Origin: a virus
Lineage: Duplodnaviria; Heunggongvirae; Uroviricota; Caudoviricetes
Length of the DNA: 64,000 nt
Reading direction: 5' to 3' (one strand)
IMG/VR virus record: IMGVR_UViG_3300033233_000013
Span: 50,857-114,856 of that record
Part shown: one piece after another, positions 15,155-55,034 of the stretch
How the letters are laid out: each line of letters opens with the position of its first letter
Numbering within the stretch: position 1 is the stretch's first letter
The notes under the pieces: model-generated
Databases searched by the model: none
What the model saw: only the letters and a program-made list of their open reading frames with translations
Told to the model about the DNA's origin: nothing
Position numbers and translations under genes: made by a program

Positions 15155-15188
15155 CCGCTCCACCGCCCCATCCACCCGCCGCGTCCTC

Positions 15189-29945: not shown

Positions 29946-31378
29946 GTCGTTCCCCTTGTCCTCATCGGAGCGCCGCTCGACTCGTCCGCAAGAGTCGGCG
30001 GCTTGCCACGAGCAGCCGATCGGTGTCCGCAATCACGCGCATCAGCCGGCGCACCGAAGCGGGCGCGTGCGTCGGCTCTCTCTCTCTCGACCGCGAGCGC
30101 GCGTTGCGATGCGTGCAACGCCGCGACCGTCCGCTGGCGCGCTGGACTCTTGGCCATCCGCATGCCGCACCACCCGCGATGCGTGCGCGCCTCACGGCCG
30201 CAGCGGCAGAGAATAGGGCGCCCGAGAAGTGCCTCGACGATCCGGCGCGCCTTATCGACGGTCTCGCGCGTGACGCCAACCGTGCAGGCGATCTCGCGGA
30301 GTGAGTCTCCGTTGACGATAGCCGTGATGAGCGTCGCGAGCTGGTCGCCGCGCGCCCGCAGCCCACGCGGCCCCATGATCGCGAACACGTCGACGTTCTC
30401 GGGGACGGGGACATCGAGTACTGCGGCCACGCGCAGCAACGAGCGCGTGGCCATGTCTTCCTCGTGACACGAGGATTCGATGGGCGGTGGCACCGCGGAG
30501 CGCGCGGCATAGCGTTCGGCGACCCGGCGCGCGATCGCCTCGCGGCGGAGTTCCGCTCGGCGCTGATAGCAGGGTCGGCACAGCTGCCCGAGAATCGGCG
30601 TGCCGCACGTCGCACGCTCGCTGCCGGCGATCCCCGGGCATGGGACAGACCACCGCGACCGCTGCGGAGACGGCCCGTCTCCAGGTTCGACGACGACGTC
30701 AACGGGACCTGGATCTACCGTCTGCTCTTCGACCTTCTCTTCTTGGCTGCCATAGGCACCTCCCTCACCGTTCGGGAGACGGGCAGTCTCGGCAGCGGTC
30801 GTGACGTGTGGCGGCACCAGATGGAGTCCGCCGAACTCCGCGAAGTCCGGGAGGTAGTCATGGCGGACGACGAAGTCCCAGGCGTTGCGGTCGATCTTCG
30901 GCGGTACGACGCGCTTCGGAGCGACGACCTGATTCGCCGAGCGGAGCGGCGGCGCAGGGGGCACGATGGACAGCTCCCCAGCGGGGCGAAGCGTCCGATA
31001 GACCGGGTAGCGCGCGCCATCGGGCACGAGCACGTGGTTGGCTTCCCAAATCCGGCGCAAGCGCTCGGCGAAGACCTCGCGCTCGAACCCGAGCGCATCA
31101 CAGAGCGATTCGGCCGATCCCCACTCGCCCGCGGGCCGCTCGTCGTCGCGCCACCACCACTGCGCATTCGCACGGGCGCCGCGCGTATCGGAGTGCGCGA
31201 AGGCCGAGCAGCCCTGGCGCGCCGCGTCCTCGATCGCGGCCGTCATGACGGCGACCATGAGCCGGCGCGTGCCGTCCTCGAGCGGGAGCCCTTGCCGTGG
31301 CGCGCCGCCGATCGACGCCGGGTCGAGCCCGTCGAGGCTGTCGCCGCGACCGAGGGGATTGCCGGTGCCGGTCGCCAT
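29936..31378 (-). CDS. Putative regulator (~480 aa): N-terminal ANAQWWWxDD domain, Zn-ribbons, and a sigma-70 region-4 / LuxR-like HTH
   Basis: Internal Met MATGTGNPLGRGD... on an ATGA overlap. HTH segment LATLITAIVNGDSLREIACTVGVTRETVDKARRIVEAL. Cys pairs CGTPILGQLCRPC and CRCGREARTHRGWC. Confidence 0.5.
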   Translation of the reverse strand: MATGTGNPLGRGDSLDGLDPASIGGAPRQGLPLEDGTRRLMVAVMTAAIEDAARQGCSAFAHSDTRGARANAQWWWRDDERPAGEWGSAESLCDALGFEREVFAERLRRIWEANHVLVPDGARYPVYRTLRPAGELSIVPPAPPLRSANQVVAPKRVVPPKIDRNAWDFVVRHDYLPDFAEFGGLHLVPPHVTTAAETARLPNGEGGAYGSQEEKVEEQTVDPGPVDVVVEPGDGPSPQRSRWSVPCPGIAGSERATCGTPILGQLCRPCYQRRAELRREAIARRVAERYAARSAVPPPIESSCHEEDMATRSLLRVAAVLDVPVPENVDVFAIMGPRGLRARGDQLATLITAIVNGDSLREIACTVGVTRETVDKARRIVEALLGRPILCRCGREARTHRGWCGMRMAKSPARQRTVAALHASQRALAVERERADARARFGAPADARDCGHRSAARGKPPTLADESSGAPMRTRGTTCG

Positions 31379-32601
31379 TAGGCAAGCCCTCGCTGTTCCA
31401 TCATCTGCGCGTACTGGGGCGCGGAGCGCGCGAACACGGCGGCGAGTGCGGGTTGCCAGGTGAGGGCAGGCGAATCCAAGCAGTTGGGGTGGCTCGGTCC
31501 GATGCGGTGACGCCACTCGCGCCACGGGCCGCGGTTCGGCCCGAGCTGGTCCTCCGCTTCGAGCTGGCGGACGGTGATCAAGCGCGGCGTGCCATCGCCG
31601 TTCTTCCAGAGGCGGAGACAGCCCGAGCACGGGTTGGCGGCGAGCGTCTTGTAAACGAGGGTCTCGGGGGTCCAGTTCCGGGAGCGCCGTTCCCCTTCGA
31701 ATGCCCCACGGAGCCGCGCCTCTTGGATCTCCGTCCGCGCCACACGTTCGAAGTCGCGCTGGATGCCCTCCTCGACCCCGAGGCGCTGATAGAGCTGGCG
31801 TGCGAACTCTCGCGGGTGGACTTCCGCTCGAATGGCGTCGGCGGTCATCGTCCGCAGCAAGTCGCACTCATGTTCGAGCATCCCGGCGTGTGCAGCCGTG
31901 CCATCGCGGAGTAGCACCGGCGTCAGATACTCGCCGGCGCGCGCGCGGGCGACCGCGATCGCGACCTCGTCGGAATGGAGGAGCGGCGTCTCGCCGGCGA
32001 GCTGCAGGACCCGCGGCCAGGCGAACCGGACGCCGGGCTTGCGGAGCTCGGCGTCGATGAGGCCAAGCTTGTAGCTGACCCCCGGGAAATCGAGCACGTC
32101 GCGATCGGTGAAGCCGAGCTTCCGCACGGCCTGCTCGACGCCGGGGCTCAGCGGATTCGCGACGCTCCAGCGGATCGCTTGGCGCTGATCGAACAGCAGC
32201 CGCTCGAACGCCTCGAGCTGCGCCGCCTCGTGGAGGTGGCCCGCGTGCCAGGTCAGGAAATCCTCGATCGCGGCGCGGAGGAGCGCCCGCACGGACCCGA
32301 CGTGCGTCCGCGCCTGCTCGGCCACGAGCTCGAGCCACCACTCCTCGAACGCGAGTCCGGGCTGCACCTGGACGGCCTTCATCCACGGCCCGACCTCGTA
32401 GGCGCCGGGGATCGGAAAGAGCGCGTCCCAGAGCGTGCGCGGATCGACGGCGCGGGCGGCGGGATGCGAGAGCGCGACCTCGAGACGCTGCCCGCTCGCC
32501 GCCTTCACGACGTACGTGCCGGCAGCGGGAAAGAGCTCGGCGAGGAGGGTGGCGACCTCGCGCGCCGGGACGACGTCGTCGGCGATGACCAGCTCGAGCA
32601 T
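31378..32601 (-). CDS. MuF / SPP1 gp7-like head morphogenesis protein
   Basis: Internal Met MLELVIADDVVPAREV... on an ATGA overlap. C-terminal MuF signature NPCSGCLRLWKNGDGTPRLITVRQL...GPNRGPWREWRHRIGPSHPNC. Confidence 0.7.
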   Translation of the reverse strand: MLELVIADDVVPAREVATLLAELFPAAGTYVVKAASGQRLEVALSHPAARAVDPRTLWDALFPIPGAYEVGPWMKAVQVQPGLAFEEWWLELVAEQARTHVGSVRALLRAAIEDFLTWHAGHLHEAAQLEAFERLLFDQRQAIRWSVANPLSPGVEQAVRKLGFTDRDVLDFPGVSYKLGLIDAELRKPGVRFAWPRVLQLAGETPLLHSDEVAIAVARARAGEYLTPVLLRDGTAAHAGMLEHECDLLRTMTADAIRAEVHPREFARQLYQRLGVEEGIQRDFERVARTEIQEARLRGAFEGERRSRNWTPETLVYKTLAANPCSGCLRLWKNGDGTPRLITVRQLEAEDQLGPNRGPWREWRHRIGPSHPNCLDSPALTWQPALAAVFARSAPQYAQMMEQRGLA

Positions 32602-33848: not shown

Positions 33849-33881
33849 GCATCGGGTGCGTCAGCATCTCAAGCCCCAGGA

Positions 33882-36800
33882 TCAGAACGCGCCGCCTTCC
33901 ATGGTCGCACCGCCATCGAGTTGGCCCTCGCGGGCACTCGGGAGTCCCTGGAAGATGCCCGCCACGACGATGCGCCCGAGCCCCGGAAAGCCGGCGGCGG
34001 TGTTGACCGAGGCGGAGGACGACGTTGGGGCGAGACAGAAGACGCTCGCGAGCTGCACCGCGACCTGGCTCCCACTCGGCAGCTCATGCGCGCCGAAGGC
34101 CGTCACGCTCGCGCCCACGATGCCGTTGTCGAGGAAGCAGGGGCGGTTGCGAAACACGGAGCACGTCTCGGCCACGCACGTGCTCCCCGGGCATGCCGAG
34201 TTCGTCGTGCAGAGTCCGCCCGCGTTCGTCCCCGCCGCACACCGCGCGTAAGGCGCACAATCCGCGTCGATCGCGCATTCGACAAACGTCGCCGTGGGGC
34301 CGCAGAGGTTGTCAAACGGTCCGCCCGCACATTGCCCGTTGCCGCCACCGGCACACGTGCTGCCCGGGCACTCAGACGCCTCGGCGCAGACCGCATTCGC
34401 ATTCACGCCCGCGATGCACCGCCCATCAATGGCCGAGCAGTGTCCATCATCGCAGGCGTTCGGTGCCGTCGCGAGGCCGGGCACGATACACGCCCCGCTC
34501 GGACACTCGCTCGAGACGCTGCACGGCGTCCCGGCGTTGGTCCCCGATTGACACCGACGCCCGCCGCAGACGGTGGCCCCGACCGCGGTGCAATCGGCAT
34601 TGCTCGCGCACACCGTGGCCGCTGCGTTGTTGCAGGTGTCGCAGAAGCACGCGAGGGATGTGGATCCGACCGCGCGGCACGGCGGGCTCGCGCCGGTCAG
34701 CGCCCGGGTCTCATGATGCGTCGAGAGCGCGAGCGGAAGCGTCATCTTCCCGATGGTGCCGCTCGGTGGGCAGTCGAGACTCGTCGTGCCGAACCAGCCG
34801 TTCGGGTGCGTGCCGTTGGCATCGCAGGCAAGGCCGATACGGGGACCGTCGGAACAGGTGCCGTCCTGCACCCCGTCATCCTCGGCCACGTCGCCGACGC
34901 AGAGCGGACAGGGCGCATCGGTGTGGAGGCCGTTCGCCACGTCGGCGATGGCCGTCCCCGCGACTTCGGCATCCCCGGTGTTGAGGTTCACGGTGCCGGA
35001 GAGATTCGTCGCGAAGTGGACGAGCGCGCAGACCGGCACGCTCCCCGCGCTGAACGGAATCGGCCCGCCGAAGAAGTCGCGGCAGACGTCGCCGGCCGCG
35101 CAGCCGCCCGTGTCGCCGCATCGGGTCTGCGGCTGATCCACGCACCGCCGGGTCGCGAGCTGGCGGAAGGGTGGCGGGGTCGCTTGCGGCGGCGCAAAGG
35201 GATTCGTCGTGAGCCCCGTCACCTGGCAGACGCCGCACGGCACTGTCGGGTTGTCGCAGTGCTGCACCCGGAGCGTCAGGGACGCGTTGCCGCTGAGCGT
35301 CTGCCCGTGTGCCGTGCCCGTCCACCCGAGGTCGAGGTGGGCATTCTCGGCCGGGTTGTTGATGAACGAGAGCTGTCCTGGACAGGAAATCGGCGGGCCG
35401 GGGGGTGCCGTCGCGGTCGCCGTCGGCGTTGGCGTCACCGTCTCAGTCGGGGTCGCGGAGAGCGTCGGTGTTGGCGTCTCCGTCGCGGTCAGTGTGGGCG
35501 TCGGCGTCTCCGTGACGGTCGGCGTCGGCGTCGCTGTCTTCGTCGGCGTGGCCGTCACGGTCGGCGTCGGCGTGAGCGCGGGCGTCGCGGTCAGCGTCGC
35601 GGTCGCCGTGACCGTGGGCGTGGGAGTAGCGGTCACCGTCGGCGTCGGCGTGACTGTGATCGTCGGCGTGGCACTCGGCGTCGGCGTCCCGGAGGCGACG
35701 CAGAGGTCGACGTACGGATACGCATCGTGGAGCCCGTTGCCCTCGATGACGGTGCTGTTCGTGATGAGGTCGACGCCGTTGCCTGCCGTTGGCTCCCCGC
35801 CGCTGACCCACGCGCGGAAGGCGACTTTCGACGCCGGCACGAAGTTGTCGAGGTTCGTGAGCGTGAGCACGTTCCACGCAAACGTGGTCAGGCTATTGAT
35901 CGTGACCGAGGCCGCGACCGGATCGGTACTCCCGCTCTCTTCCTTCACGTAGTCGCTGCAACTGAACGTCGTCGGCGGGCTCGGCCAATACTTCAGCACG
36001 AAGTTCCGCACCCCGTCGAAGTTGTCGCGGTTCGTGACACCATAGACGAACTTCGCGGCCGCCACGTGATGCCCGGATGGCACGGCCGTCGTCGTATCGA
36101 GCCGCATCAGCATCACGTCGGTGTACCAGTTGTCATAGTCGCACGCGGACTGATTGCAGACGTGCGCGTGGTAGACCTCGTGCGCGAAGAGATAGGGAGG
36201 ATTGTTCGCGCCGCCGATGAAGCTCGTACAGCGCGTGATCTGCGCATACGAGCCCATGCCAGTACACGTTCCACCCGGACACCCGCTGCTGTTCGTGCAG
36301 GCGCCGTTATTGTTGGTCCCGCCCGTGCATTTCGGCTGATTCGTACACGCCCCGCTCGGACATTCACTGCTCGTCACACACGCCGTGCCATTGTTTGCGC
36401 CGCCGTAGCAATACGTCGGGGAGTAGCCGCGCACGTACGCCTTATCGGCCGTCCCGGCGAGCACGACGCGCTGATAGTCCTCGCCGGCATTGCACGAGAT
36501 CATCGGTGTTGGCGTGGGCGTGACGGTCGGCGTTGGTGTCACGGTGAGTGTCGGCGTTGGCGTTTCCGTGACCGTGGCCGTGGGGGTGGGTGTCGCCGTC
36601 AAGGTTGGCGTGGGCGTCAGAGTCGGCGTCTTCGTCGGCGGGGGCGTGGCGGTGATCGTGGGTGTCGGTGTGGGCGTCGGCGTCACCGTGGGGGTTGGCG
36701 TTGTCGTGGGTGTCGGCGTCACGGTCGGCGTCGGCGTGAGAGTCTGCGTCGGCGTCGGCACTTCGAGCGGCGTGGATGTGATGGTTGGCGTCGCCGAGAG

Positions 36801-38189
36801 CGTGGGCGTCGCGGTCGGTGTTGGTGTCGTGGTCTTCGTCGGCGTCGGCGTGAGGGTCGGCGTCGGGGTCAGCGTGGGCGTCGGCGTGGCGGTGCGCGTC
36901 GGCGTTACGCTCGGGGTCGGGGTGCCGGTCGGCGTCACACTCGCCGTCGCGACCGGCTGGTAATCGCACATCAGCCACGCGTCTTCGATCGTGAGCACGG
37001 CATTCGTCGTCGTGTTCCGCGCGCCGATTTCTGTCTCCGCCAAGATCGCCACGGGGCTCGGCGCGAGCGGGGGCGTGGCTCCCGGACGTGGTGTTGGCGT
37101 CCAACACGGTCCCACGGCGGCCCCCGAACCGCAGTCGTCGTAATAGGCATCGCTCGTCGTGAATGTCCGGGTGTTCAGGAGTTCGGTCACGAGGTCGCGC
37201 CGAATGATTCGGTGCACGCCCGTCGTCGCGGCCCGCTTCCCATACACCTGCACCTTGCAGGCATTCAGCACCGCATTGGCTGGCATCGCGTCGGCATCGA
37301 CGGTGAAGGGGCGGACGCGCATGCCTTGGCTCCGCGTCGCCGTCACGCCGGAGTTGCGATTCGTCCCGGTGTTCGGCGGCGTGTCCGACCACTCCTTCCC
37401 GGCATAGTTTGGCGTCGTGTTCGGCACCGGCGACCACTGGTTGTAAAACGGCGTCGGTCCCGGCGACGGATAGCCTTGCCGCGCAATTACTTTGCCGTTG
37501 GCCGGGAACGCCGCATCATCGACGTAGAGATCATCGTGCGTCGCATGCACGAGCGCGCCACTCGTCGCCGTGCCGCCCCCAAACGCCACGCGGTCCACGT
37601 TCGTCGAGCCGGTATTGAGCGTCGCCACGCTGGTCAGGATCGTGACGTCGTCGAGCTGCACAACCACCTGGCCGACCGTGGTCGACCGCACCACCTTGAG
37701 GTTGATCGCGTAGAACCGCCCAGCCGTAATCGGGAACTCCGTCATCGAAGGAATGGCCGCGCCCGTCCGCTGCCGCGCCTCGAGCGCGATCGTCCCGTCG
37801 GTGTGATAGTTCACCTGCACACCACCGATAAAGACGCTCGTCGCATCCTCGCACCACACGAGAAAGCTGCTCACGGCGGCACCCGTCGGCGGCGTCACGA
37901 CGTCGATGCGAACCGGGTCGCGGACGAAGCAGTTGAGCGTGATGCCGAGGCCCGTCGGCGAGCGTGCCACGTCCGCCGCGCCCGTTGACTGGTAACTGTA
38001 GCTGCCGCTCCGCACGAGCGTGGGATCGCTGACGATGGTCTTGATCTGTCCCGAGAAGGACGAGAACTCCCCGAGGCTGCCCGTCTCCATGCCCGCGAAC
38101 CAGCGCGGCGCCGCCTCGGCCGACGTCGCCACGAGGCAAAGGGAAAGCGCAAGCGCCGCCGCGAGGACCGTGCTACGCTTGCCCGTCAT
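33882..38189 (-). CDS. Giant secreted protein (~1435 aa): signal peptide, jelly-roll-like N-domain, two long Thr/Pro linkers, an HExxH (HEVYH) segment, and C-terminal arrays of Cys-rich CxxxxC repeats
   Basis: Internal Met MTGKRSTVLAAALALSLCLVATSAEA|APRW. Repeats such as NAGTPCSVSSECPSGAC and SNADCTAVGATVCGG resemble Myxococcus-type Cys-rich repeats. Confidence 0.6.
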   Translation of the reverse strand: MTGKRSTVLAAALALSLCLVATSAEAAPRWFAGMETGSLGEFSSFSGQIKTIVSDPTLVRSGSYSYQSTGAADVARSPTGLGITLNCFVRDPVRIDVVTPPTGAAVSSFLVWCEDATSVFIGGVQVNYHTDGTIALEARQRTGAAIPSMTEFPITAGRFYAINLKVVRSTTVGQVVVQLDDVTILTSVATLNTGSTNVDRVAFGGGTATSGALVHATHDDLYVDDAAFPANGKVIARQGYPSPGPTPFYNQWSPVPNTTPNYAGKEWSDTPPNTGTNRNSGVTATRSQGMRVRPFTVDADAMPANAVLNACKVQVYGKRAATTGVHRIIRRDLVTELLNTRTFTTSDAYYDDCGSGAAVGPCWTPTPRPGATPPLAPSPVAILAETEIGARNTTTNAVLTIEDAWLMCDYQPVATASVTPTGTPTPSVTPTRTATPTPTLTPTPTLTPTPTKTTTPTPTATPTLSATPTITSTPLEVPTPTQTLTPTPTVTPTPTTTPTPTVTPTPTPTPTITATPPPTKTPTLTPTPTLTATPTPTATVTETPTPTLTVTPTPTVTPTPTPMISCNAGEDYQRVVLAGTADKAYVRGYSPTYCYGGANNGTACVTSSECPSGACTNQPKCTGGTNNNGACTNSSGCPGGTCTGMGSYAQITRCTSFIGGANNPPYLFAHEVYHAHVCNQSACDYDNWYTDVMLMRLDTTTAVPSGHHVAAAKFVYGVTNRDNFDGVRNFVLKYWPSPPTTFSCSDYVKEESGSTDPVAASVTINSLTTFAWNVLTLTNLDNFVPASKVAFRAWVSGGEPTAGNGVDLITNSTVIEGNGLHDAYPYVDLCVASGTPTPSATPTITVTPTPTVTATPTPTVTATATLTATPALTPTPTVTATPTKTATPTPTVTETPTPTLTATETPTPTLSATPTETVTPTPTATATAPPGPPISCPGQLSFINNPAENAHLDLGWTGTAHGQTLSGNASLTLRVQHCDNPTVPCGVCQVTGLTTNPFAPPQATPPPFRQLATRRCVDQPQTRCGDTGGCAAGDVCRDFFGGPIPFSAGSVPVCALVHFATNLSGTVNLNTGDAEVAGTAIADVANGLHTDAPCPLCVGDVAEDDGVQDGTCSDGPRIGLACDANGTHPNGWFGTTSLDCPPSGTIGKMTLPLALSTHHETRALTGASPPCRAVGSTSLACFCDTCNNAAATVCASNADCTAVGATVCGGRRCQSGTNAGTPCSVSSECPSGACIVPGLATAPNACDDGHCSAIDGRCIAGVNANAVCAEASECPGSTCAGGGNGQCAGGPFDNLCGPTATFVECAIDADCAPYARCAAGTNAGGLCTTNSACPGSTCVAETCSVFRNRPCFLDNGIVGASVTAFGAHELPSGSQVAVQLASVFCLAPTSSSASVNTAAGFPGLGRIVVAGIFQGLPSAREGQLDGGATMEGGAF

Positions 38190-38364
38190 GCGCACCCTGC
38201 TCACCGTGGCGCTGATGCTCGCGTGCGCGGCCGTCGCCGGACACTTCCTGACGCCGGCCGAGAAGGTCGACCCCGAGCTGCAGGCCGCGATGGAACTCGG
38301 CACCGTCCTCCCGGAGCACTGCATCCGCCAGGACACCACGGGCTGGCATTTCGTCTGCCCCTAG
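38188..38364 (+). CDS. Small secreted peptide (58 aa)
   Basis: MRTLLTVALMLACAAVAGHF... Its start shares a CATG with the divergent giant gene. This call is weak. Confidence 0.3.
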   Translation: MRTLLTVALMLACAAVAGHFLTPAEKVDPELQAAMELGTVLPEHCIRQDTTGWHFVCP

Positions 38365-38366
38365 CC

Positions 38367-41129
38367 TCACGAGGGCACCGGGAACGCGCAGCGCCACGTG
38401 TCGCAATCCCCGTCCACGCTGCACGATCCAAGATCGACCCGCCCGCGCGTGCACTTCGTCGCCACGCAGAGCCCATCGTGGGTCGCGCTGCCTACGGCCG
38501 CGCCGAGTGGCGTGTTCGTCACGCACTCCGTGAAGAGATCCGCGAGGAGCCCGCGCCCGAAGTCGTTCGGGTGAATCGAGTCGGTGAAGAAACACGACGT
38601 GTCGGCGCACGTCCCCTGGAGGCTCGGCGTGCGGAGCTTCACCGCCCGACGCGCGTCGATCCAGAGCCGCACACTGTCGGCCTTTCCCCAATCGTCAATC
38701 AGCCAGCGGTCGTACTCCTCGATTTCGGTGCGCACGCTGCCCCAGCAGCCGACCCCTTGCCCCTCGATCGGCGGGGGCGGGGCGACCGCGACGAACGCAG
38801 GGCGACCGTTCGGGGTCTTCGCCGGCGTCGGATAGGCGTCATGCGTCGCGACCAGTGCGAGGAAATCGTCCTTTGCCCACTGTACCTTGTTCGAGGTGAC
38901 GCAGGTCCCGGAGCAATCCGGCGAATCTTTACAACCCGAGTTACACCAGGACGCCCGGCGATTCGGCGGCGTCCGATCTGCGCGACAATTATCGCCGGCG
39001 TTGATGCAGCCCGGGGTCGTTGCGCAATTCTGGCAGGCAAAGGTACACCGACCGCCGGGACAGGCCGAGGTCGCGGAACACGTCTGACCGGCATTGCTCC
39101 CGAACTCACAGTAGCCGCAAATCCCTGTGCCCCCGTTGAAGCTACAGTCCGCATTCGAGGCACACACGCAGTCGCTGCTATTGTAGCAGCTCGCGCCGAA
39201 CGCCCCGGCTCCTGTGCCTTTCGTGACGCAGTAGCCATGACTGCCCCTGGCGGGGTCGGTCCGCCGCAGCGTCGAATCGCCACACTCGCACGCGTGACCT
39301 TGATCTGCCCCGCCGCTCTCGCACCATCCATTTTGCCCGAGGCCACCCTCGAGTGAGGTGGGATTGTCGGTCTTCCCGACTTGCTTCTGGTGGACGTTGT
39401 TGACGCCGAACATCTCCAAGATGACGTCACAGGTCTTGCCGAGCTGGCCGCGCTTCTTTGAACACTTGAGATAGCCGCCACTGTTCCCTTCGACGATGAA
39501 GCTGTAGCGGTCGGTCATGTCCTGAATCATGGTGCCGCCGAGCGAGCAGAAGTAAAGATTCGTCGGCTCGATCACACGCGCGTTGACCTTGTTCCAGAGC
39601 TCTTCATTCGCGATGATCGAGTCGCCGACGATGCACAAGGTATCCTCCCCGTCCGCGTCGAGATCGGGAATGATCGCGGGAATCGGCGGGTCGGCGGTCT
39701 GCCGGAGCACGCTCACCGTGGCATCGGTAAAGCGCATCTTGTTCCCGCCCGAGCCGGTGCGCTTGAACTGCAGATGGACCGCGCTCAGGTTTGCCAGGAT
39801 CGTCGCGTTTTCGGAGAGCAGCGGCGGCAGATTGTGGAAGGCCGCGCTCGTGCCGTTGTCCGCGAAGATGTCCACGAAGTCGGCGAAGTCGCTCGTCGTC
39901 GTCGCCCCCGAGACGAACTCCAGGTCCACCGTCGCCGTCCCGTTCTCGGCCTGCTGCATGTCGAGTTCGGCAAGGATCGCGAGCGGCGTCGGTGCCGGCG
40001 TCGGGGTGGAGATCGCGGCAAAGTTGATGATGGCGGTCGGCTTGGCGGCCTGCGTGTTCTCCAGTGTCGAGAGTGTTCCGTCGATCGCTGTCCCATCGTT
40101 CAGGCAGTCGAAGAGGTGCGTGTCGTCGCAGGTCCGGACTGCGCCACCAGAGAGGAACGAGTGCCAGTTGCCGCGCTCACCGTCGCTGAGCGGCAGCGTG
40201 GTTTCCCAATAGGAATTGGCCACGACGTTCCCGTCGTACCAGAAGCATCCGTCGAGCACGTAGGACCATCCGCCATCTGCGACCGTGTCATCCGTGCCGA
40301 TCACCGGCTGCGTAATCGTGACCCGATGGTCCGTACAGGTACTCGCCGGGCAATCGCTATCCGCCCCGCACGAGTAGCCTGCCGACGCGCCCGCGGCACA
40401 GATGCCGACGAGGCGATTCGTCGTGCCGCGCGGGTAGACGTTCGAGGGCACGCCGCCGGTGCCCGACCAGAGCCCGACGTCGACGGAATCGTCGGTGCCA
40501 TTCTTCTGGCGGAGCGTGAACGCGTTCCAGCTCCCGACCGGAATCTCGACGTCGGCATACTTCGCCGCCACGCACGTCGACTCACAATGGTTGTTCTCCG
40601 GGCAGTTCGTGGTGTCGCGCGCCTGATCGTTGCACGAGGGATCGACCACGGGCGTGCAGGGCGTATCGTTCCGTGTCGACCCGGAGCAGACGTAGCCCGT
40701 CGTGCTCCGATACCAGGCGGTCAAGTTTGCGTTCTGTGCGCTCACGGGATTCAGCGTCAGGATCGCGCCATCTTCGCTCGCGCCGCGGAAGTTCGTCAGG
40801 CGCCGCGTCGTCGTCCCGACCGTCAAGACCTTCAAGCGACACGAGAGATTCAATGTGCCCTGCGCACTCGCCATCGCAACCGGCAGGATGTAGTCCGTCG
40901 CGCCACTGGCGGGTGCAAACTTTGCCGCACAAAGGTTCCCCGGCATGGTGTCCAGCCCGCTCGTGATGGTCGTTGGCTTGTTTGTGCCGTAGCCGAGCCA
41001 CCGTCCCGGCGTCGGTTGCGGCGTCGTCTCGATCAGACATGGTTCGTTCCATGCGCCGAAGATCGTCGCCTGCGCCTCGACCGGCAGCAGCATGCACGCC
41101 AGCGCCACGAAGACGCGGAGCGCTCGCAT
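38367..41129 (-). CDS. Secreted Cys-rich repeat protein (~920 aa) containing an SGNH/GDSL hydrolase-like domain
   Basis: Internal Met MRALRVFVALACMLLPVEAQA on an ATGA overlap. GDSL block LCIVGDSIIANE and catalytic DxxH block FFTDSIHPNDFG. Many Cys-rich repeats (CASNADCSFNGGTGICGYC and others). Confidence 0.6.
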   Translation of the reverse strand: MRALRVFVALACMLLPVEAQATIFGAWNEPCLIETTPQPTPGRWLGYGTNKPTTITSGLDTMPGNLCAAKFAPASGATDYILPVAMASAQGTLNLSCRLKVLTVGTTTRRLTNFRGASEDGAILTLNPVSAQNANLTAWYRSTTGYVCSGSTRNDTPCTPVVDPSCNDQARDTTNCPENNHCESTCVAAKYADVEIPVGSWNAFTLRQKNGTDDSVDVGLWSGTGGVPSNVYPRGTTNRLVGICAAGASAGYSCGADSDCPASTCTDHRVTITQPVIGTDDTVADGGWSYVLDGCFWYDGNVVANSYWETTLPLSDGERGNWHSFLSGGAVRTCDDTHLFDCLNDGTAIDGTLSTLENTQAAKPTAIINFAAISTPTPAPTPLAILAELDMQQAENGTATVDLEFVSGATTTSDFADFVDIFADNGTSAAFHNLPPLLSENATILANLSAVHLQFKRTGSGGNKMRFTDATVSVLRQTADPPIPAIIPDLDADGEDTLCIVGDSIIANEELWNKVNARVIEPTNLYFCSLGGTMIQDMTDRYSFIVEGNSGGYLKCSKKRGQLGKTCDVILEMFGVNNVHQKQVGKTDNPTSLEGGLGQNGWCESGGADQGHACECGDSTLRRTDPARGSHGYCVTKGTGAGAFGASCYNSSDCVCASNADCSFNGGTGICGYCEFGSNAGQTCSATSACPGGRCTFACQNCATTPGCINAGDNCRADRTPPNRRASWCNSGCKDSPDCSGTCVTSNKVQWAKDDFLALVATHDAYPTPAKTPNGRPAFVAVAPPPPIEGQGVGCWGSVRTEIEEYDRWLIDDWGKADSVRLWIDARRAVKLRTPSLQGTCADTSCFFTDSIHPNDFGRGLLADLFTECVTNTPLGAAVGSATHDGLCVATKCTRGRVDLGSCSVDGDCDTWRCAFPVPS

Positions 41130-44100
41130 CACTCCCGCCCGACGCAGAGGTAGTTGATGACTCCCGCCGCCGTAAATGCCGTCGGCTGAAGTGTCGTCAC
41201 ACTTGACGAGGTCGCCCCGTAGTTCGTGATGATGAGCGACGTCGTCGAGGTCTGGGCACGCAGGATGCCGCCGAGCGATGGCGGCGCCGTATCCCACGAG
41301 AGCGTACAGGCGGGCGCGTTCGCGAATGTCCCTGGCAACCCAAAGGTCAGCGTGCACGCGCTGACGGAGCCGCCACCGCCAATCGTGATCCTCCCAGCCG
41401 TGTTGGTGCCGACAAGGCTCCCGTTCGGGCTCGACCCACACGAGCTGATGGTCGGCGCCGCGCCGCCCGTGGCGATCCGCGACGTCGCATTGCCGTCGAG
41501 GTAGACGACACCCGCGCCCCCGACCGCCCCACCGCCCCCGACCTTGGCCGTGAGAATGACACTCGACCCGTTCCAGCCGATGCCGCCGATGACTGACGCA
41601 TTGCCACCCGCACCGAGACCACCGCCTGCGCCCCCTTGCACAACCGCCGGACCACCAATGCCGCCGTTTTGCCCCCCGCTGCCGGCGCCACCCTGCAGCG
41701 TGAGCGTGCCGCCGGTGCCGACGGGGGAGCCGGCGGCTGCGCCCGCCGCGATCGTGAGCCCGCCGGCTGTGCCGTTCGCCGTCAGATTCCGCGGCTCGAC
41801 GAGAATGGTATGTGTCGCGCCCGTGCCGCCTTCTTTAAACGTCAGATTCCCCGCGATCTGATCATTGGCCCCGCAGATGCGTATGGGTGTGACCGTGGCC
41901 GTGGGGGTGGGCGTCGCTGCCGTTGCGGTCGGCGTCGCGCTCGTCGGCGTCGGCGTGGCGGTGGGCGTCGCCGTGGCCCCGACGTTCTCCGGCCCATTGA
42001 CCTGCGTCACGCCCAGCAGGTTCGTCCCTGCCGACCCATCCAGCGTGCCTCCGCTGGCGATCGTCATCGTCGCCCCGCTGTCGATCGTCAGCGACTTGCC
42101 CGTCAGGATGTGCACGGGACAGTCCTGGTTCAGCACCGTCGACCCCGCACAGGTCTGATTCAGCTTGTTCCCGCTATTGAAGTATTTCGTGCAGAAGTCC
42201 GAGTCGGTGCCCTGACAGCGCGAGACGTCGTCGGTCGCGATCACGGTCGGGATCTGCGAGTTCAGAATCGTCGCCCCGCCGACCTTCACCACGGTCGAAT
42301 CGAGGCTCATGTTCGCCTCGCCGCTCGGCGATTCCGTCACGTCGAAGTCGGCCGCCGTGAAATCCAGCGTGCCGGCGTTCGCCGCGACCGTCGCGTCACC
42401 TTCCTGCACGATCAGTTTCGGTGTCGGGCTCGTCGTGGGTGTCGCCGTCACCGTCGCAGTCGGAGTCGGTGAGACAGTCGGGGTCGGCGTCGGATGGCAC
42501 ACGAACCCTGCGGCCGTCGTGTCTACGCCATAGGGGCACGCCCCCGTCGGGATCACGCGCCACGTCGTCGTGCCCGTGATGGCATCCGTCACGACCTCGA
42601 ACGCTGGCACGACAGACGGTGCCGACGCCGGATGCACGATCGTGTAGGGCGCGGCGAAGCCGGCATCGGGCGAACAGTCCTTGCGCGTATCGGTGCCGGC
42701 TAACGGCGGCTCCTTCAAGGTGAAGCAGTTGCCCGAAGCCTGCGCCAGACAGTCCAGTTTGCCGTTGATGATCGTGCAGTCTGACGGCCCGATCGAGAGC
42801 CCATCGGCGGATGGGAAGACCGCGATCGCATACGTCGCGACCGGCGACGGCGGCGCCAAGATATACGGCGAGTTCGACGGCGTCGGATCCGGCGTCGGCG
42901 TGGGCGTCGCCGAGGGCGCCGGCCCGTCGCAGCGCCAGCCGGCGCTCGTCCGATAGGCGATCGCGCCCGGCCCCGAGCCGGCGCACGGCTCGGTGTTCTT
43001 CGCGCAGTCGGTGCAGGCGACCTGGCTCCCAGCGGCCGCGTTCTCGAGCGGGCCGCCCGACGTGAGATCGGCGAACGTCGCCGGCGGGAGACCGCCGATT
43101 GTGAAGTTGCCCGACGAGCCCGACGCGGCGTCGATCGGCTTCGCGCAGTTCGTGCGGTTGAATCCGATCGTGATGCCGAGGACGGTCTCCAGCCGGATGC
43201 ACTCCCGCCCAGTCGTCGTCTCCCACGAGATCACGTTCCCGCGAATGTCGACCCGGTTGGCGCCGGTACCGCCGGTCACGTCGCGGAGCCAGACGCCCTT
43301 CGCGTCGTTCGCGGTCGCGAGGTTCGTGATGCTGTTGGCCTCGATCAGCCCGCCGACGAGCTCGCGGAGCACGATCGCCGAGGAGTCGAGCGACGACAGC
43401 GCGTTTCCCCAGCCGCCGCCCGTGATGCGGTTTCCGACGATCGCGACGTTCCGCGCCGGGTCAAGCGCCATGGCCCCTGCGGCCGACTGGCCCTGGACGA
43501 GGATCGCGTTGCCGCCCTGGCGGTCGAGCTCGTTTCCGAGGAGGCTCGTCTCGAGCGGCCGCTGCGTCGCCTCGATGCCGACCAGGTAGCCACGGACGGT
43601 GTTGTGGCTGACGGTGACATCGGTTTCCGCGATCGCGGTGCAGGTCGCCGCCGTGCAGGTGCCAGACGGACACTGCGACGCGACGGTGCAGACGGCCGCG
43701 TTGTTCGCCCCGCCGACGCACGAGCTCCCCGGGCAGTCGCCGTTGGCGTCGCAGTTGCTATCCGGGCTCGAGCCGTGGGCGCACGCGGCCGTGCGGACGA
43801 GCGCGATGCCAGAACCCGTCGCGACACACTTCTCCCCTGAGACCGACGTGCAGTCGGTATCGCCGTAGCACTCCTGTGCCGAGGACGTGCACTGCGCATC
43901 GCTCGCACACGCGGCGCCGCCAACCGCGCACGTCGTCCCGCCGCCGCCGGTGCAGCGATTCGTGCAGGCGCCCGGCTTCGTGAGGACGTTGCCGCTGATC
44001 TCGGTATCCTGGCAGGCGCCGCAGGTGATGCCGTTCCCGGTCGCGGTATTGACGGCGCGGATCGTGTTCCCCTGGATCTTCGCCTGCTCGACCGGCGCCT

Positions 44101-45049
44101 CTTTCTTGCCGTTCAGCGTGATGCCGTTCGAGTTGCCGTCGAGCTGGTTCCCGCGGACGATGAGGTCGCGAAAGGGTCCGCCGGTGTCGTCGGGCGGCTC
44201 GAGCCGGATCCCGCCATTGCCGTTGCTGGTGATCGTGTTGTCGAGGATCCGGCAACGCTGGCAGTCGGCGCGGATGCCGTGGCGGTCGTTCGCGGTCGCT
44301 GTGACCCCGCGGATGCGGATCAACGACGGCACGGCCTGGCCCGGCGTCGCGACGCTCACGCTGATCCCGTCGCCGTCGGCGTGCGTGACGGTGACGTCCT
44401 CGATCGCGATGTTCGTTGCGCCGTCGACGATGCGGATGTCCGGGCCCTGATCGTCGGTGCCGGTCGCTCCCCGGTTCGCCGTGTTGCCGTCGATCGTGCC
44501 GTGGCCGCGGATCCGCACGTCGGCGATACCAGCGATGGAAAGCGGGCGGAGGGAGTGACTGACGCCGTTCGCCGCCTTCAGCGTGCCCTCGATCGTGAGC
44601 CGCTGGCTGGCGTTCAGCGTGAGGCCGGTGCCGACGACACATGTGACCCCGCCCGGGAGGAGCACCACCTTCGCGCCGGCGGTGTTCAGGGTGGCTTGGA
44701 TGGCCGTCGCATCATCGGTCGTCCCGTCGCAGACCGCGCCCTGCTCGACGAGGTTCACGGTCGTGATGGGCGTGGCCGTCGCGGTCGGCGTCGGAGTGGC
44801 AGTCAGGGTTGGCGTCGCCGTTTTCGTCGGGGTCGCCGTCTTGGTCGCGGTCGGGATCGGGGTGATGCGAACGATCCGCGCCTTCTGCGCGCTGTCGCGT
44901 TGGACGTCGAGCCCGCTCGGCTTGTCGATGATGATCTTCGCGGGATCATGGACCGCGGTCGTGCCGTCGCTGTTCTCGATCGTGAGCTGCGCCCGCGCGA
45001 GCGGGACCAGCAGGACGAGGAGCGCGAGGGCGAGCGCGACGCGCTTCAC
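41129..45049 (-). CDS. Secreted right-handed beta-helix protein (pectate-lyase superfamily N-terminus) with PT linkers, Cys-rich modules and a Gly-rich C-terminal region (~1306 aa)
   Basis: GTG start on a GTGA overlap gives MKRVALALALLVLLVPLARAQ. A VCDGTTDDATAIQATLNTAG motif and parallel beta-helix repeats (GNTIRAVNTATGNGITCGAC..., IRGNVISW). C-terminal GGAGSGGQNGGIGGP... Confidence 0.6.
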   Translation of the reverse strand: MKRVALALALLVLLVPLARAQLTIENSDGTTAVHDPAKIIIDKPSGLDVQRDSAQKARIVRITPIPTATKTATPTKTATPTLTATPTPTATATPITTVNLVEQGAVCDGTTDDATAIQATLNTAGAKVVLLPGGVTCVVGTGLTLNASQRLTIEGTLKAANGVSHSLRPLSIAGIADVRIRGHGTIDGNTANRGATGTDDQGPDIRIVDGATNIAIEDVTVTHADGDGISVSVATPGQAVPSLIRIRGVTATANDRHGIRADCQRCRILDNTITSNGNGGIRLEPPDDTGGPFRDLIVRGNQLDGNSNGITLNGKKEAPVEQAKIQGNTIRAVNTATGNGITCGACQDTEISGNVLTKPGACTNRCTGGGGTTCAVGGAACASDAQCTSSAQECYGDTDCTSVSGEKCVATGSGIALVRTAACAHGSSPDSNCDANGDCPGSSCVGGANNAAVCTVASQCPSGTCTAATCTAIAETDVTVSHNTVRGYLVGIEATQRPLETSLLGNELDRQGGNAILVQGQSAAGAMALDPARNVAIVGNRITGGGWGNALSSLDSSAIVLRELVGGLIEANSITNLATANDAKGVWLRDVTGGTGANRVDIRGNVISWETTTGRECIRLETVLGITIGFNRTNCAKPIDAASGSSGNFTIGGLPPATFADLTSGGPLENAAAGSQVACTDCAKNTEPCAGSGPGAIAYRTSAGWRCDGPAPSATPTPTPDPTPSNSPYILAPPSPVATYAIAVFPSADGLSIGPSDCTIINGKLDCLAQASGNCFTLKEPPLAGTDTRKDCSPDAGFAAPYTIVHPASAPSVVPAFEVVTDAITGTTTWRVIPTGACPYGVDTTAAGFVCHPTPTPTVSPTPTATVTATPTTSPTPKLIVQEGDATVAANAGTLDFTAADFDVTESPSGEANMSLDSTVVKVGGATILNSQIPTVIATDDVSRCQGTDSDFCTKYFNSGNKLNQTCAGSTVLNQDCPVHILTGKSLTIDSGATMTIASGGTLDGSAGTNLLGVTQVNGPENVGATATPTATPTPTSATPTATAATPTPTATVTPIRICGANDQIAGNLTFKEGGTGATHTILVEPRNLTANGTAGGLTIAAGAAAGSPVGTGGTLTLQGGAGSGGQNGGIGGPAVVQGGAGGGLGAGGNASVIGGIGWNGSSVILTAKVGGGGAVGGAGVVYLDGNATSRIATGGAAPTISSCGSSPNGSLVGTNTAGRITIGGGGSVSACTLTFGLPGTFANAPACTLSWDTAPPSLGGILRAQTSTTSLIITNYGATSSSVTTLQPTAFTAAGVINYLCVGRE

Positions 45050-45576
45050 GCGACGCCACCCCACGCGTCGACGGCGACGCCGCTCGTGCGCGCGAGGACG
45101 ACGAGCTTGTATTCCTTCATCCCGCGGCACTCGACGCCGAGCGCGAGCGTGCGATCGATGCCGATGAAGTTGCCCGACTCGAGCACATCGTCGCCGGCCG
45201 TGCCCCCGGCGCCCCCCGAGAGGCCCAGGTTGTCCGGCTCGAACACGCCCACCCAGACGACGCGACTGTCATGGCCGCGCATCGCGACGATGAACTCGCG
45301 CGTGTTCGCGGGGGGCGCGGGATTGGCGCGGTACTCGATCTTGATCCGCAGGAGCGCGTGATCGGCGCACGACTTCCACGCGCTCTCGGCGTAGACCCCG
45401 GACGCGCCGCCGTTCGTGAAGAGTCGGTCCGCATCGAGGAAGGAGAGCCGATCGCCGATCAGGCCTACCGCTTCGCCATCGGTGTCTGCGCTCGCGCCGA
45501 GCCCCTGGAAGCACGCCGTGTTGTGCGTGTCGCCGGCGGCGGCGGGCTCGATCCGGCGGCGCTTGCTGAGGGCCAC
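45046..45576 (-). CDS. Hypothetical protein (176 aa)
   Basis: MALSKRRRIEPAAAGDTHNTACFQGLGASADTDGEAVG... with normal composition. Confidence 0.45.
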   Translation of the reverse strand: MALSKRRRIEPAAAGDTHNTACFQGLGASADTDGEAVGLIGDRLSFLDADRLFTNGGASGVYAESAWKSCADHALLRIKIEYRANPAPPANTREFIVAMRGHDSRVVWVGVFEPDNLGLSGGAGGTAGDDVLESGNFIGIDRTLALGVECRGMKEYKLVVLARTSGVAVDAWGGVA

Positions 45577-47414: not shown

Positions 47415-47852
47415 TTACGCGGGCGCCTCGAACCGGCGGAGGTTCTCGACGCGAAAGCCGTGCTGGAGGGGAAATTCCCCGCCGGTGTGCACGACCCGGA
47501 GCAGCATCACGTGCACCTCGTAGAGCGACGCGCGATCGAGGATTGGGACCAGGCGCGCGGGGAACGTGAGGAAGAGCTTCAAGACCGTCGGATCATCCGG
47601 GTCGGTCGGATCGACCACGTACCGCGCGCCATAGACCGCCTTCATCGGCGGCAGATCGCTCGCCACGAAGATCGGGATGTCTTCCTGGCTTCGGATCGTG
47701 TTCCCGGCGTCGTCGTAGACATCGGCGTTGTAGAGCGCGACGAGCGTGATCGTGAGGAGGGCCGCGAGCGGCACCGGGAGGCGCGTGTGCGTGTCGAGGA
47801 GCGGCGCCGACCACTCGACATCCGCGCCCTCTGGCACGTCGGTCACGATCAC
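47415..47852 (-). CDS. Hypothetical protein (145 aa)
   Basis: MIVTDVPEGADVEWSAPLLD... Its start overlaps the portal stop. Confidence 0.45.
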   Translation of the reverse strand: MIVTDVPEGADVEWSAPLLDTHTRLPVPLAALLTITLVALYNADVYDDAGNTIRSQEDIPIFVASDLPPMKAVYGARYVVDPTDPDDPTVLKLFLTFPARLVPILDRASLYEVHVMLLRVVHTGGEFPLQHGFRVENLRRFEAPA

Positions 47853-54943: not shown

Positions 54944-55034
54944 GCGTCCTCCACCTTCCTTGCCACGACACGCGAGGCGCGGGGACGGCCCGCGCTCGCA
55001 CCCTTCCCCCCGTCGCCGTCCGACGGCGTTGCCC

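Follow-up and report, generated by a model that had tools for sequence, protein, structure and literature searches.

Why would a phage carry, among its head genes, three giant genes whose products open with signal peptides? We examined a 64,000-nucleotide stretch (hereafter the window) of an uncultivated high-GC (69% GC) myovirus, in which three co-oriented genes on the minus strand, A, B and C, encode such proteins (Table 1). A first-pass annotation, made from the sequence alone, had located them between the portal and head-morphogenesis genes, and this placement held. The trio lies downstream of a portal gene recognized by PHROG profiles (phrog_15361, phrog_12 and phrog_11117, E = 1.7e-19 to 1.8e-14; the match to Pfam Phage_portal was below cut-off) and upstream of a gene weakly matching MuF/gp7-like head-morphogenesis proteins (phrog_758, E = 0.0027). 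The insert size of 12 kb did not hold, as the stretch from portal to prohead protease measures 32.6 kb.

Three giant genes among the head genes

An independent gene caller run on the source contig returned A, B and C at the lengths first proposed. The genes had also been described as translationally coupled to each other and to their neighbors. This is so upstream, where the 176-aa gene overlaps A and the stop of A overlaps the start of B (TGATG), but not for B and C, which are separated by 177 nt spanned only by a called 74-aa ORF, nor for C and the next gene, about 160 nt apart. Family searches with the 176-aa and 74-aa products gave no match.

The three ORFs could have been over-called in high-GC DNA, or could be decayed remnants without function. 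Spurious long ORFs are common at 69% GC, one example being a plus-strand ORF of 1405 aa at 33771-37988. However, GC3 in the called frames is 0.83-0.88, catalytic residues are conserved among homologues, the fold model is confident and gene order is kept in other contigs. We therefore regard this explanation as effectively refuted.

Table 1. Positions in the window of the three giant genes, their parts and neighboring landmarks. Slashes mark predicted cleavage sites.
Feature	Position	Strand	Remarks
Portal gene	47849..49750	-	Upstream landmark
176-aa gene	45046..45576	-	Stop overlaps GTG start of A (GTGA)
Gene A	41129..45049	-	1306 aa; ORF and translation; same length in independent call
A signal peptide	44987..45049	-	(M)KRVALALALLVLLVPLARA/Q
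A beta-helix	43070..44758	-	Residues 98-660; includes N-terminal cap motif CDGTTDDATAIQATL
A Cys-rich insert	43640-43966	-	Residues 362-470; inside beta-helix
A conserved domain	42065..42418	-	Residues 878-995; marks gene immediately upstream of B-like genes elsewhere
Gene B	38367..41129	-	920 aa; same length in independent call
B signal peptide	41067..41129	-	MRALRVFVALACMLLPVEAQA/T
B jelly-roll domains	39690..41066	-	Residues 22-480; concanavalin-like
B SGNH domain	38370..39662	-	Residues 490-920
B Ser504 codon	39618-39620	-	Catalytic
B Gly531 codon	39537-39539	-	Catalytic
B Asn577 codon	39399-39401	-	Catalytic
B Cys-rich insert	38895-39347	-	Within SGNH domain
B Asp850 codon	38580-38582	-	Catalytic
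B His853 codon	38571-38573	-	Catalytic
74-aa ORF	38173..38397	-	Called on source contig; overlaps end of B and start of C; status uncertain
Gene C	33882..38189	-	1435 aa; same length in independent call
C N-terminal domain	36915..38111	-	Residues 27-425; conserved in gene after B in relative L001
C middle domain	35688..36503	-	Residues 563-834; two Cys repeats and single HExxH (36168-36182)
C C-terminal Cys-rich domain	33885..35399	-	Residues 931-1435; common to secreted cellular proteins
407-aa gene	31378..32601	-	Downstream landmark; weak head-morphogenesis match

A common design of signal peptides and cysteine repeats

We scored signal peptides with a crude rule: a positive n-region, an uncharged hydrophobic h-region of at least 9 residues and, in roughly the first 30 residues, a small-x-small cleavage site. 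By this rule A, B and C, as first annotated, each open with an n/h/c-type (Sec-type) signal peptide ending in AxA. Clear signal peptides occurred in 5 of 34 window proteins and in none of the core virion proteins. Despite identities of 25-55%, they are retained in homologues of A (N-terminus MNARALFAVVALIVLPVAVVAQ in the homologue P0005) and of C, and 55 of 65 full-length representatives of the B family pass the rule. Judged by their sequences, most of the ten B relatives that fail it seem to have a mis-called or truncated start, or fall short by K/R alone.

The three proteins contain 157 cysteines in total (3.3-5.5% of residues, versus 0-0.4% in the major capsid protein (MCP), sheath and portal), and a 22-residue four-Cys repeat, CxGGxNxGxxCxxxSxCPxGxC, is found in all of them; by composition, they look like disulfide-type proteins. 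The repeat had been assigned to a Myxococcus type and taken to hint at a myxobacterial host. Both suggestions had to be dropped: A, B and C matched no repeat model in NCBIfam or Pfam, including TIGR02232, at E ≤ 0.1, and the sole named cellular relative, which shares the C-terminal domain of C, is from Candidatus Binatia. The Thr/Pro (TP) linkers ascribed to all three proteins occur in A and C, with lengths of 25-130 residues, and not in B. Among PHROGs, only phrog_15511, of unknown function, matched the trio; it covers TP-linker regions of A and of other proteins, and in C it spans residues 490-765 (E = 1.6e-17), reaching into the middle domain.

B carries an SGNH hydrolase domain and A a beta-helix

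B consists of a signal peptide, two jelly-roll domains and an SGNH hydrolase domain into which a Cys-rich stretch of ~150 residues is inserted. The first-pass annotation had placed a jelly-roll in C; those demonstrated are in B. The SGNH domain has the three-layer alpha/beta/alpha fold and a complete catalytic tetrad, and the GDSI and DSIHPN segments noticed at first are true blocks I and V. In block I (G502-D503-S504-I505), S504 is invariant among 64 family members and D503 is at least 90% conserved, as are the oxyanion-hole residues G531 of block II and N577 (in GVNN) of block III. Block V (D850-S-I-H853, a DxxH motif) aligns to GDSL enzymes in the PDB; H853 does not vary in the family, and D850 reaches at least 90% conservation. 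No Pfam or NCBIfam family, the curated GDSL models included, matched B at E ≤ 0.1, probably because the insert splits the domain, and the B profile reached AlgX at an E-value of only 0.8.

A begins with a signal peptide and a TP linker, followed by a parallel beta-helix that houses a Cys-rich insert and then by three more TP-separated domains. The proposed beta-helix was confirmed by Pfam NosD on residues 250-357 (34.3 bits versus a cut-off of 23.6, E = 2.1e-8) and by a profile built from A and P0005, which itself carries PF13229 and PF05048. This profile matched the epimerases AlgE4 (2pyg, E = 2e-5) and AlgE6 (5lw3, E = 1.2e-4), and iota-carrageenase at E = 0.013. The suggested Pectate_lyase_3-type assignment fared less well: Pect-lyase_RHGA_epim scored below its gathering threshold on residues 98-313 (20.0 versus 27 bits, E = 6.4e-4), and only its N-terminal cap motif, together with general repeats, agreed with these two models. 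The candidate catalytic segment of A is unaligned in P0005, the sole homologue for comparison. On profile similarity, the nearest relatives of this parallel beta-helix are the secreted mannuronan C5-epimerases. These assignments for A and B point to polysaccharide chemistry, in line with the earlier proposal of polysaccharide-acting enzymes.

C is a composite protein sharing a domain with cellular proteins

The N-terminal half of C comprises a signal peptide, a conserved domain and a 137-residue TP linker; the remainder comprises a middle Cys-repeat domain with an HEVYH motif, a 96-residue TP linker and a Cys-rich C-terminal domain. Residues 8-428, signal peptide included, align at 29% identity to a gene of L001, and the N-terminal domain had no match in the PDB, Pfam or deposited phages. 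The HExxH site noted earlier is present once, at residue 670 (0.014 expected by composition), but peptidase-family and homologue support for it is absent: the middle domain had no match in Pfam, NCBIfam or the PDB. The C-terminal ~500 residues share 37-40% identity with P0006 and P0012 (Candidatus Binatia, HEY2386100.1). One 7.0-Mb contig carries four paralogues, and all cellular members have signal peptides. Together with the signal peptides retained across the homologues, this bears out the exported look of the trio.

The A-B pair recurs in other phages

The A-B gene pair is conserved in four other phage contigs, joined in L001 by C. The A-type gene always lies directly 5' of the B-type gene, with stop and start overlapping, and is marked by the domain at residues 878-995 (42-49% identity by BLASTP to L001_656, L002_276, L010_890 and L016_1175). 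The module adjoins the portal gene in four loci (the window, L009, L010 and L016), and in L017 it comes right after tail genes. The last contig encodes a canonical Pect-lyase beta-helix protein resembling a tailspike, without a signal peptide, and separately a four-gene cluster of signal-peptide proteins including a B-like protein and a GH-like DUF4874/DUF4832 protein.

This distribution bears on the first-pass view of the block as an inserted island. The block borders share no 12-mers and hence no flanking repeats of at least 12 nt, no tRNA or att-like repeat was found in the window, no integrase was present among its scanned ORFs, and promoter and terminator counts for the block were at the level of shuffled controls. 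GC and GC3 resemble those of neighboring genes. A recent island was rejected on the phage-like composition, the absence of repeats and the recurrence of the pair, and the same checks gave no sign of an independent mobile element.

The genes might still be lysogenic-conversion cargo (a moron), expressed from the prophage and remodeling surface glycans of the lysogen, with host benefit or superinfection immunity as the result. Exported envelope-active proteins are typical moron products, Lom and Bor of phage lambda being examples that likewise lie within structural gene clusters; C carries a host-derived domain, and GC3 of the giants is slightly under the 0.90-0.93 of core structural genes. However, lambda-type morons are small, sporadic and equipped with their own promoter and terminator, none of which is true of this module. 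Its genes are chained to late genes via overlapping codons, the pair has persisted in several deeply diverged phage lineages, signs of integration (integrase, att-like repeats, tRNA) are missing from the window, and all recovered contexts are phage-like contigs, with no flanked prophage among them. We consider such cargo improbable.

Could the giants be parts of the virion?

The giants could also be virion appendages, that is, neck, head or tail fibers or depolymerase spikes, either with hydrophobic N-termini that do not serve as export signals or as proteins exported, oxidatively folded in the periplasm and joined to complete particles once holin opens the inner membrane. Their genes belong to the late structural cluster, in which start and stop codons overlap, and lie beside portal or tail genes. 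Beta-helix, SGNH and LamG domains are the classical tailspike and fiber repertoire, typical of receptor-binding and depolymerase proteins (BFVD matches include minor tail, receptor-binding and LamG proteins). In addition, a protein of 2016 aa built on the same plan (signal peptide, LamG and TP linker) is encoded in the baseplate module after genes for 358-aa and 239-aa baseplate proteins. This position is equivalent to that of Dolphis gp27, a tailspike/endo-glycosidase following 375-aa and 240-aa baseplate proteins, and no other fiber gene was seen within the ~70 kb examined of the 117.5-kb contig. In three lineages, the MCP gene is also followed by one for a small signal-peptide and linker protein, where a decoration protein would be encoded. 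The coding investment is large as well (>17 kb).

Several observations argue against this assignment. Tailed phages build their virions in the cytoplasm, and we know of no Sec-exported tail fiber. A, B and C match no PHROG tail, fiber or anchor family. In each, the signal peptide gives way at once to a TP linker or lectin domain, and a virion-attachment domain would find no space between them. L017 has its own tailspike candidate lacking a signal peptide, and Dolphis gp27 and the 2016-aa protein have no detectable sequence similarity. We judge a role in the virion, the main rival explanation, possible but somewhat unlikely.

Comparison with known systems

Phage G7C and the Vi phages carry deacetylating spikes, which exemplify SGNH-esterase tailspikes. 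Such spikes and virion-associated depolymerases (reviewed in PMC5380687) likewise direct beta-helix and SGNH domains against host surface polysaccharide and use LamG or jelly-roll targeting. However, they have N-terminal virion anchors, lack signal peptides, contain few cysteines and are encoded in tail modules, whereas the giants have Sec-type N-termini, many cysteines, TP linkers and a place beside the portal. The NanS-p sialate O-acetylesterases of Stx prophages (PDB 6yp6) are small, single-purpose proteins of temperate coliphages, lacking giant multidomain architecture and a beta-helix partner gene.

The alginate system, with secreted AlgE, the periplasmic beta-helix AlgG and the SGNH proteins AlgX/AlgJ with a CBM, similarly pairs a beta-helix enzyme with an SGNH/jelly-roll enzyme outside the cytoplasm on one acetylated acidic polysaccharide. 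Its members are cellular biosynthetic enzymes, and A compares with them by its profile match to AlgE4. Rhamnogalacturonan acetylesterase (SGNH, CE12) and rhamnogalacturonase A (beta-helix) show the same two-fold division of labor, but are fungal/plant-cell-wall enzymes, and the corresponding Pfam match of A is below cut-off. Signal peptides also occur on 5% of prophage CAZymes (PMC13507307), and WceF is a tailspike-like enzyme secreted by bacteria (PMC7949094). These CAZyme-like proteins, tied to phages or tailspike folds, are single enzymes of ordinary size viewed as auxiliary metabolic genes; ours form a conserved multi-gene cassette of Cys-rich proteins of 900-2000 aa in late structural operons on non-integrated contigs.

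Discussion

The best explanation, to which we give about an even chance, is that the phage expresses A, B and C late and exports them as enzymes that modify polysaccharide, either in the host envelope or as exopolysaccharide. Export is suggested by the conserved signal peptides, the cysteine content and four-Cys repeat that set the trio apart from core virion proteins, and the cellular relatives of C; the enzyme assignment draws further on the similarity of A to NosD and secreted AlgE4/AlgE6 and on the fixed A-B order. The coexistence in L017 of a tailspike-like protein and a separate signal-peptide cluster, and the documented phage CAZymes with signal peptides (PMC13507307), point the same way. 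Counting against export are the embedding in a late structural operon without its own promoter or terminator, the adjacency to portal or tail genes, the tailspike-like domain repertoire and the similarly built 2016-aa protein in the tailspike position, with no other fiber gene seen in the ~70 kb examined. In a diderm host, moreover, Sec alone reaches only the periplasm.

As exported enzymes, the three proteins would leave the cytoplasm by the host's Sec system, fold beyond it with disulfide bonds in place, and have host envelope or matrix polysaccharide as their target. B would act as a carbohydrate O-acetyl esterase (an SGNH-type acetyltransferase being the less likely option), aimed by its two lectin-like jelly-rolls, and A would be its obligate genomic partner, a putative beta-helix glycan enzyme of the epimerase/lyase type. 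The logic would match that of alginate or rhamnogalacturonan processing, in which the backbone enzyme can work only once O-acetyl groups have been taken off or otherwise dealt with. C may be an accessory protein for binding or anchoring, with a C-terminal module acquired from a family of secreted Cys-rich proteins of the host itself. We infer that the likely gain is destruction of receptor or exopolysaccharide around the infected cell, which would ease progeny escape, reduce readsorption to debris and exclude competitors.

A more speculative proposal, which we think rather unlikely, extends to all the outermost appendages: A, B and C as neck or head fibers, the 2016-aa protein as a baseplate spike and the post-MCP protein as decoration would be Sec-exported, disulfide-rich and folded in the periplasm, and would attach to cytoplasm-assembled particles when the inner membrane is breached in lysis. 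If true, virion assembly would be split between two compartments, a route for which tailed phages offer no known precedent.

Three giant ORFs in the late genes of a contractile-tailed phage

Gene calling on the contig ena:ERZ27248239:k141_1651292 gave proteins of 1306, 920 and 1435 aa (hereafter A, B and C), exactly the sizes estimated in the first-pass annotation, with a GC3 of 0.83-0.88 in the called frames. These giant ORFs are real. The signal peptides proposed for all three are likewise predicted here: each N-terminus has a positively charged n-region, an uncharged hydrophobic stretch and an AxA-type site, the cleavage sites (slash) reading ...VPLARA/Q, ...PVEAQA/T and ...ATSAEA/A in A, B and C, respectively. 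When 34 window proteins were put through a rule-based signal-peptide test, the clear positives were the three giants and two smaller proteins of 201 and 311 aa; a 931-aa protein (probably mis-started) and a 99-aa membrane protein were marginal, and portal, capsid, sheath and terminase were all unflagged. In total, at least six late proteins bear predicted secretion signals, with a summed length of more than 6000 residues.

The giants also carry the Thr/Pro-rich linkers seen at first pass, three in A and two in C (137 and 96 residues), and together contain 157 cysteines (3.3-5.5%), compared with 0-0.4% in core virion proteins. A four-cysteine repeat, CxGGxNxGxxCxxxSxCPxGxC, gives one regex match each in A and B and five in C. 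It had been read as a Myxococcus-type repeat pointing to a myxobacterial host; we rejected both assignments, and the element is an undescribed Cys-rich repeat. Translational coupling of the giants to each other and to flanking genes held in part: a 176-aa upstream gene overlaps A (GTGA) and A overlaps B (TGATG, preceded by GGGAG), but B and C are separated by 177 nt and C lies about 160 nt from the next gene.

Judging from family scans, the window comes from a contractile-tailed phage. Measured over 2-kb windows, GC ranges from 63 to 73% and is mostly 66-72%; the minus strand carries nearly all genes. The closest deposited capsid, at 36% identity, is that of Pseudomonas phage Dolphis. The portal-to-prohead-protease interval spans 32.6 kb in the window (15217-47849) and 1.8 kb in Dolphis, so the giants make up one third of a much larger expansion, in which most of the genes besides the giants and two polyvalent-type proteins have no family match. 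The polyvalent-type proteins are the 931-aa protein, with RadC JAB, InPase and RelA/SpoT domains, and a 1873-aa protein with a C-terminal SNF2/DEAD helicase (phrog_62); both resemble capsid-packaged, injected anti-defence proteins (DarB-like PHROG matches). A zinc-ribbon protein fills the slot between protease and major capsid genes where a scaffold protein is expected. The 311-aa signal-peptide protein had no family match in Pfam, PHROGs or PADLOC. The PADLOC scan returned nothing meaningful, its HNH match falling on a Thr/Pro linker.

Features of the window and of its phage contig (L013)
Feature	Position	Strand	Note
SNF2 helicase; helicase-methylase genes	61537-63327; 55340-59170	minus	Family scans
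SPFH/Band 7 domain protein	54023-55255	minus	Pfam E 4e-26; two genes upstream of large terminase
Large terminase	51269-53392	minus	phrog_675, E 6e-66
Portal	47849-49750	minus	Family scans
Five small genes	Portal to A interval	minus	No family match
A	41129-45049	minus	
B	38367-41129	minus	
C	33882-38189	minus	
Four genes after C without family assignment, one MuF-like	31378-32601 (MuF-like)	minus	phrog_758, weak, E 0.0027
311-aa signal-peptide protein	25462-26397	minus	N-terminus MRRALLLTLALGASLVPQTATA/SC, signal-peptide-like
Two polyvalent-type giant proteins	15790-24881	minus	Between portal and prohead protease
Prohead protease	14213-15217	minus	Weak match
Double zinc-ribbon (DZR) protein	13358-14200	minus	Between protease-like and major capsid genes
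Major capsid protein	11774-13303	minus	phrog_752, E 6e-59
201-aa signal-peptide protein	10509-11114	minus	40-residue Thr/Pro linker; two genes after major capsid protein
Sheath	4952-6412	minus	Followed by tube, then tape measure with SLT domain
2016-aa protein	L013:19514-20423		About 15 kb beyond window position 1, directly after baseplate genes; first 303 residues read

Two further observations concern the phage itself. Window position x corresponds to position 60683+x of ena:ERZ27248239:k141_1651292, so that the window would end at 124,683, past the 117,568 bp of the contig. Two explanations are available: the window derives from a different assembly, or the genome is circular (or circularly permuted), as would suit a phage genome that is complete and not integrated. 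A small minus-strand protein (60842-61141) begins, from an internal start, with MGEPLGALLALLVLLLVAAC... and has a lipobox-like VAAC. A spanin or lipoprotein is one possibility, and would point to a diderm host.

B is an SGNH protein paired with a beta-helix protein

Curated Pfam and NCBIfam models matched neither whole B nor whole C. The identity of B was reached only through an exhaustive HMM search, a 64-sequence alignment and AlphaFold2. The profile search recovered 81 representatives at 50% clustering. In the alignment, Ser504, His853, Cys603 and Cys739 are invariant, and conservation is at least 90% at Asp503, Gly531, Asn577 and Asp850; the conserved residues correspond to SGNH blocks I, II, III and V, bearing out the SGNH call made for this protein from a short motif. 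The B-family profile matches solved GDSL/SGNH esterases (4ppy, E 2.5e-8; acetyl-xylan esterases; a sialate O-acetylesterase), and AlphaFold2 gave a pLDDT of 89.1 with the deep alignment and 32 with four sequences. Together, the conserved blocks, profile matches and model indicate that B consists of a signal peptide, two jelly-rolls and an SGNH domain into which about 150 Cys-rich residues are inserted.

The beta-helix suggested for A was recovered by Pfam NosD above cut-off, with Pect-lyase_RHGA_epim matching below it. With a two-sequence profile of A and its homologue P0005, the matches were two secreted mannuronan C5-epimerases, AlgE4 (E 2e-5) and AlgE6, followed by iota-carrageenase. The Cys repeat of A falls within the helix, and P0005 has it unchanged. 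PDB sequence searches with A and with the N-terminal and middle domains of C returned nothing useful, and word-indexed homology searches with A and C were flooded by Thr/Pro-linker matches, the self match being absent; for C, linker-only matches formed the majority.

The giants belong to a cassette shared among phages

The first-pass description of a 12-kb island raised the possibility of an independent mobile element. This did not hold up: the giants match the phage in composition, their borders have no 12-mer in common, and the window has no tRNA. Promoter-like and terminator-like sites around them were no more frequent than in shuffled controls. All B-family genomic contexts recovered are phage-like contigs, and wherever DNA was recovered, the gene directly upstream of the B-like gene contains the domain found at residues 878-995 of A (42, 45, 47 and 49% identity in the phage-like contigs L001, L002, L010 and L016, respectively). 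On a JGI contig encoding the B homologue P0003, the beta-helix protein P0005 (1234 aa) occupies the A slot.

The position of the cassette varies. In the window it lies downstream of the portal. In L009, L010 and L016 it immediately precedes an SU10-type portal gene, with a run of four signal-peptide proteins encoded ahead of the portal in L016, and in L017 it comes after adaptor and tail genes. The four signal-peptide proteins of L017 are of 778, 1339 (B-like), 461 and 1455 aa (GH-like DUF4874/DUF4832), and this contig also encodes a 578-aa Pect-lyase beta-helix protein without a signal peptide. HNH_3 homing-endonuclease genes flank B-like genes (L002:3557-4150, L017:2968-3387 and L017:14040-14495) and could explain these differing positions. 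Cassette phages also carry glycosyltransferase genes (L016:20363-20457 and L017:1-401; UDPGT/EryCIII-like and, faintly, Glyco_tranf_2_3), whose products might glycosylate Thr/Pro linkers or host glycans.

Searching 50,697 deposited phages by tblastn with B, the C N-terminal domain and the A beta-helix gave no match, nor did IMG/VR scans with the B alignment, the portal protein and a DNA tag taken from the start of the window, or two JGI metagenome scans. The only match from a GTDB scan was a contig of 5 kb in a MAG labelled 'uncultured Actinomycetes', too short to indicate a host.

C carries a domain of cellular secreted proteins

The N-terminal 400 residues of C, signal peptide included, are 29% identical to the product of the gene after the B homologue in L001. 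Over its last 500 residues, C shares 37-40% identity with the C-terminal domain of large cellular proteins, one annotated as Candidatus Binatia (HEY2386100.1) and at least four of them paralogues on one 7.0-Mb contig. All of these relatives have signal peptides and 5-8% Cys, and most share the end motif ...AGLPGPGRVTIRGTATGxP. This cellular family (P0009-P0033; L015:6001-8463) is secreted, 800-1100 aa long and has no Pfam domain; its C-terminal motif region is a candidate for a previously undescribed type of sorting or anchoring domain.

Two other readings of C lack support. An HExxH occurs at residue 670, more than composition would predict (0.014 expected); neither family matches nor conservation back it, and a metalloprotease call was rejected. 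A B-like jelly-roll in the N-terminal domain is unsupported: by hhalign with the B-family profile, homology is confined to the signal peptide.

Exported enzymes or parts of the virion

We put at about even the chance that A and B are an exported enzyme pair acting on O-acetylated polysaccharide, with export, substrate and benefit all inferred. This model is the most economical because a family diverged to about 25% identity has kept its Sec-type N-termini, because the disulfide-type chemistry resembles that of secreted cellular proteins, and because an intact SGNH tetrad is genetically tied to an epimerase/lyase-like beta-helix. The proposed division of labour between B and A would parallel those of acetylesterase with rhamnogalacturonase and of AlgX/AlgJ with AlgG/AlgE. 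In this scheme C would reuse a host domain and serve as an accessory for binding or anchoring. Late-gene expression would fit a role at or around lysis, where clearing a receptor or matrix polysaccharide might help escape, avoid readsorption or exclude competitors. Lysogenic conversion, one of the candidate roles named at first pass, seems very unlikely, since no temperate hallmark was found in the window.

The giants might instead be virion appendages. Their architecture recurs in the 2016-aa protein, whose gene follows those for tape measure, tail lysin, a 358-aa baseplate protein (phrog_975) and a 239-aa protein; its N-terminus, MTRARRVRLAIATVLGLLALAAPAGA/TNYC, leads into Laminin_G_3 (E 1.7e-9), Cys residues and a Thr/Pro linker. 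In Dolphis, the same position, after 375-aa and 240-aa baseplate genes, is taken by gp27, annotated as a tailspike/endo-glycosidase. The 2016-aa protein has no sequence similarity to gp27, nor its 239-aa neighbour to gp26, so this argument is positional only; hhalign of the B-family profile with the 2016-aa N-terminus likewise gave no homology beyond the signal peptide. Small signal-peptide and linker proteins also follow the capsid gene, as the 201-aa protein does in the window and, directly after it, those of L010 (185 aa) and L016 (167 aa), which share a weak similarity (E 5.6e-4). These post-capsid, portal and baseplate places are where one normally finds genes for decoration proteins, neck fibres and tail spikes, and with signal-peptide proteins encoded there we regard a virion role as unlikely but worth keeping in view. 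Its radical form, in which the proteins fold in the periplasm and attach at lysis, is more doubtful still.

Significance

Phage SGNH esterases, beta-helix depolymerases, soluble phage glycanases and signal-peptide-bearing prophage CAZymes are known (PMC5380687; PMC13507307). What is new is a conserved multi-gene cassette of 900-2000-aa, Cys-rich, Thr/Pro-linked signal-peptide proteins inside late structural operons, the obligate pairing of a beta-helix gene (A) with a following jelly-roll and SGNH gene (B), the four-cysteine repeat, and the host-derived C-terminal domain of C. The family of that domain in Binatia-like bacteria is also of interest.

Phage enzymes that attack host polysaccharides are usually seen as particle parts or as cytoplasmic proteins freed by lysis, and the interest of the cassette lies mainly in the choice between exoenzyme and virion part. 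If the giants are virion parts, the rule that tailed-phage assembly is wholly cytoplasmic would need revising. If they are free exoenzymes, these phages would actively condition the host envelope or biofilm matrix before lysis, which would bear on phage spread in soils and biofilms and make the cassette a source of new disulfide-stabilised glycan esterases and epimerases.
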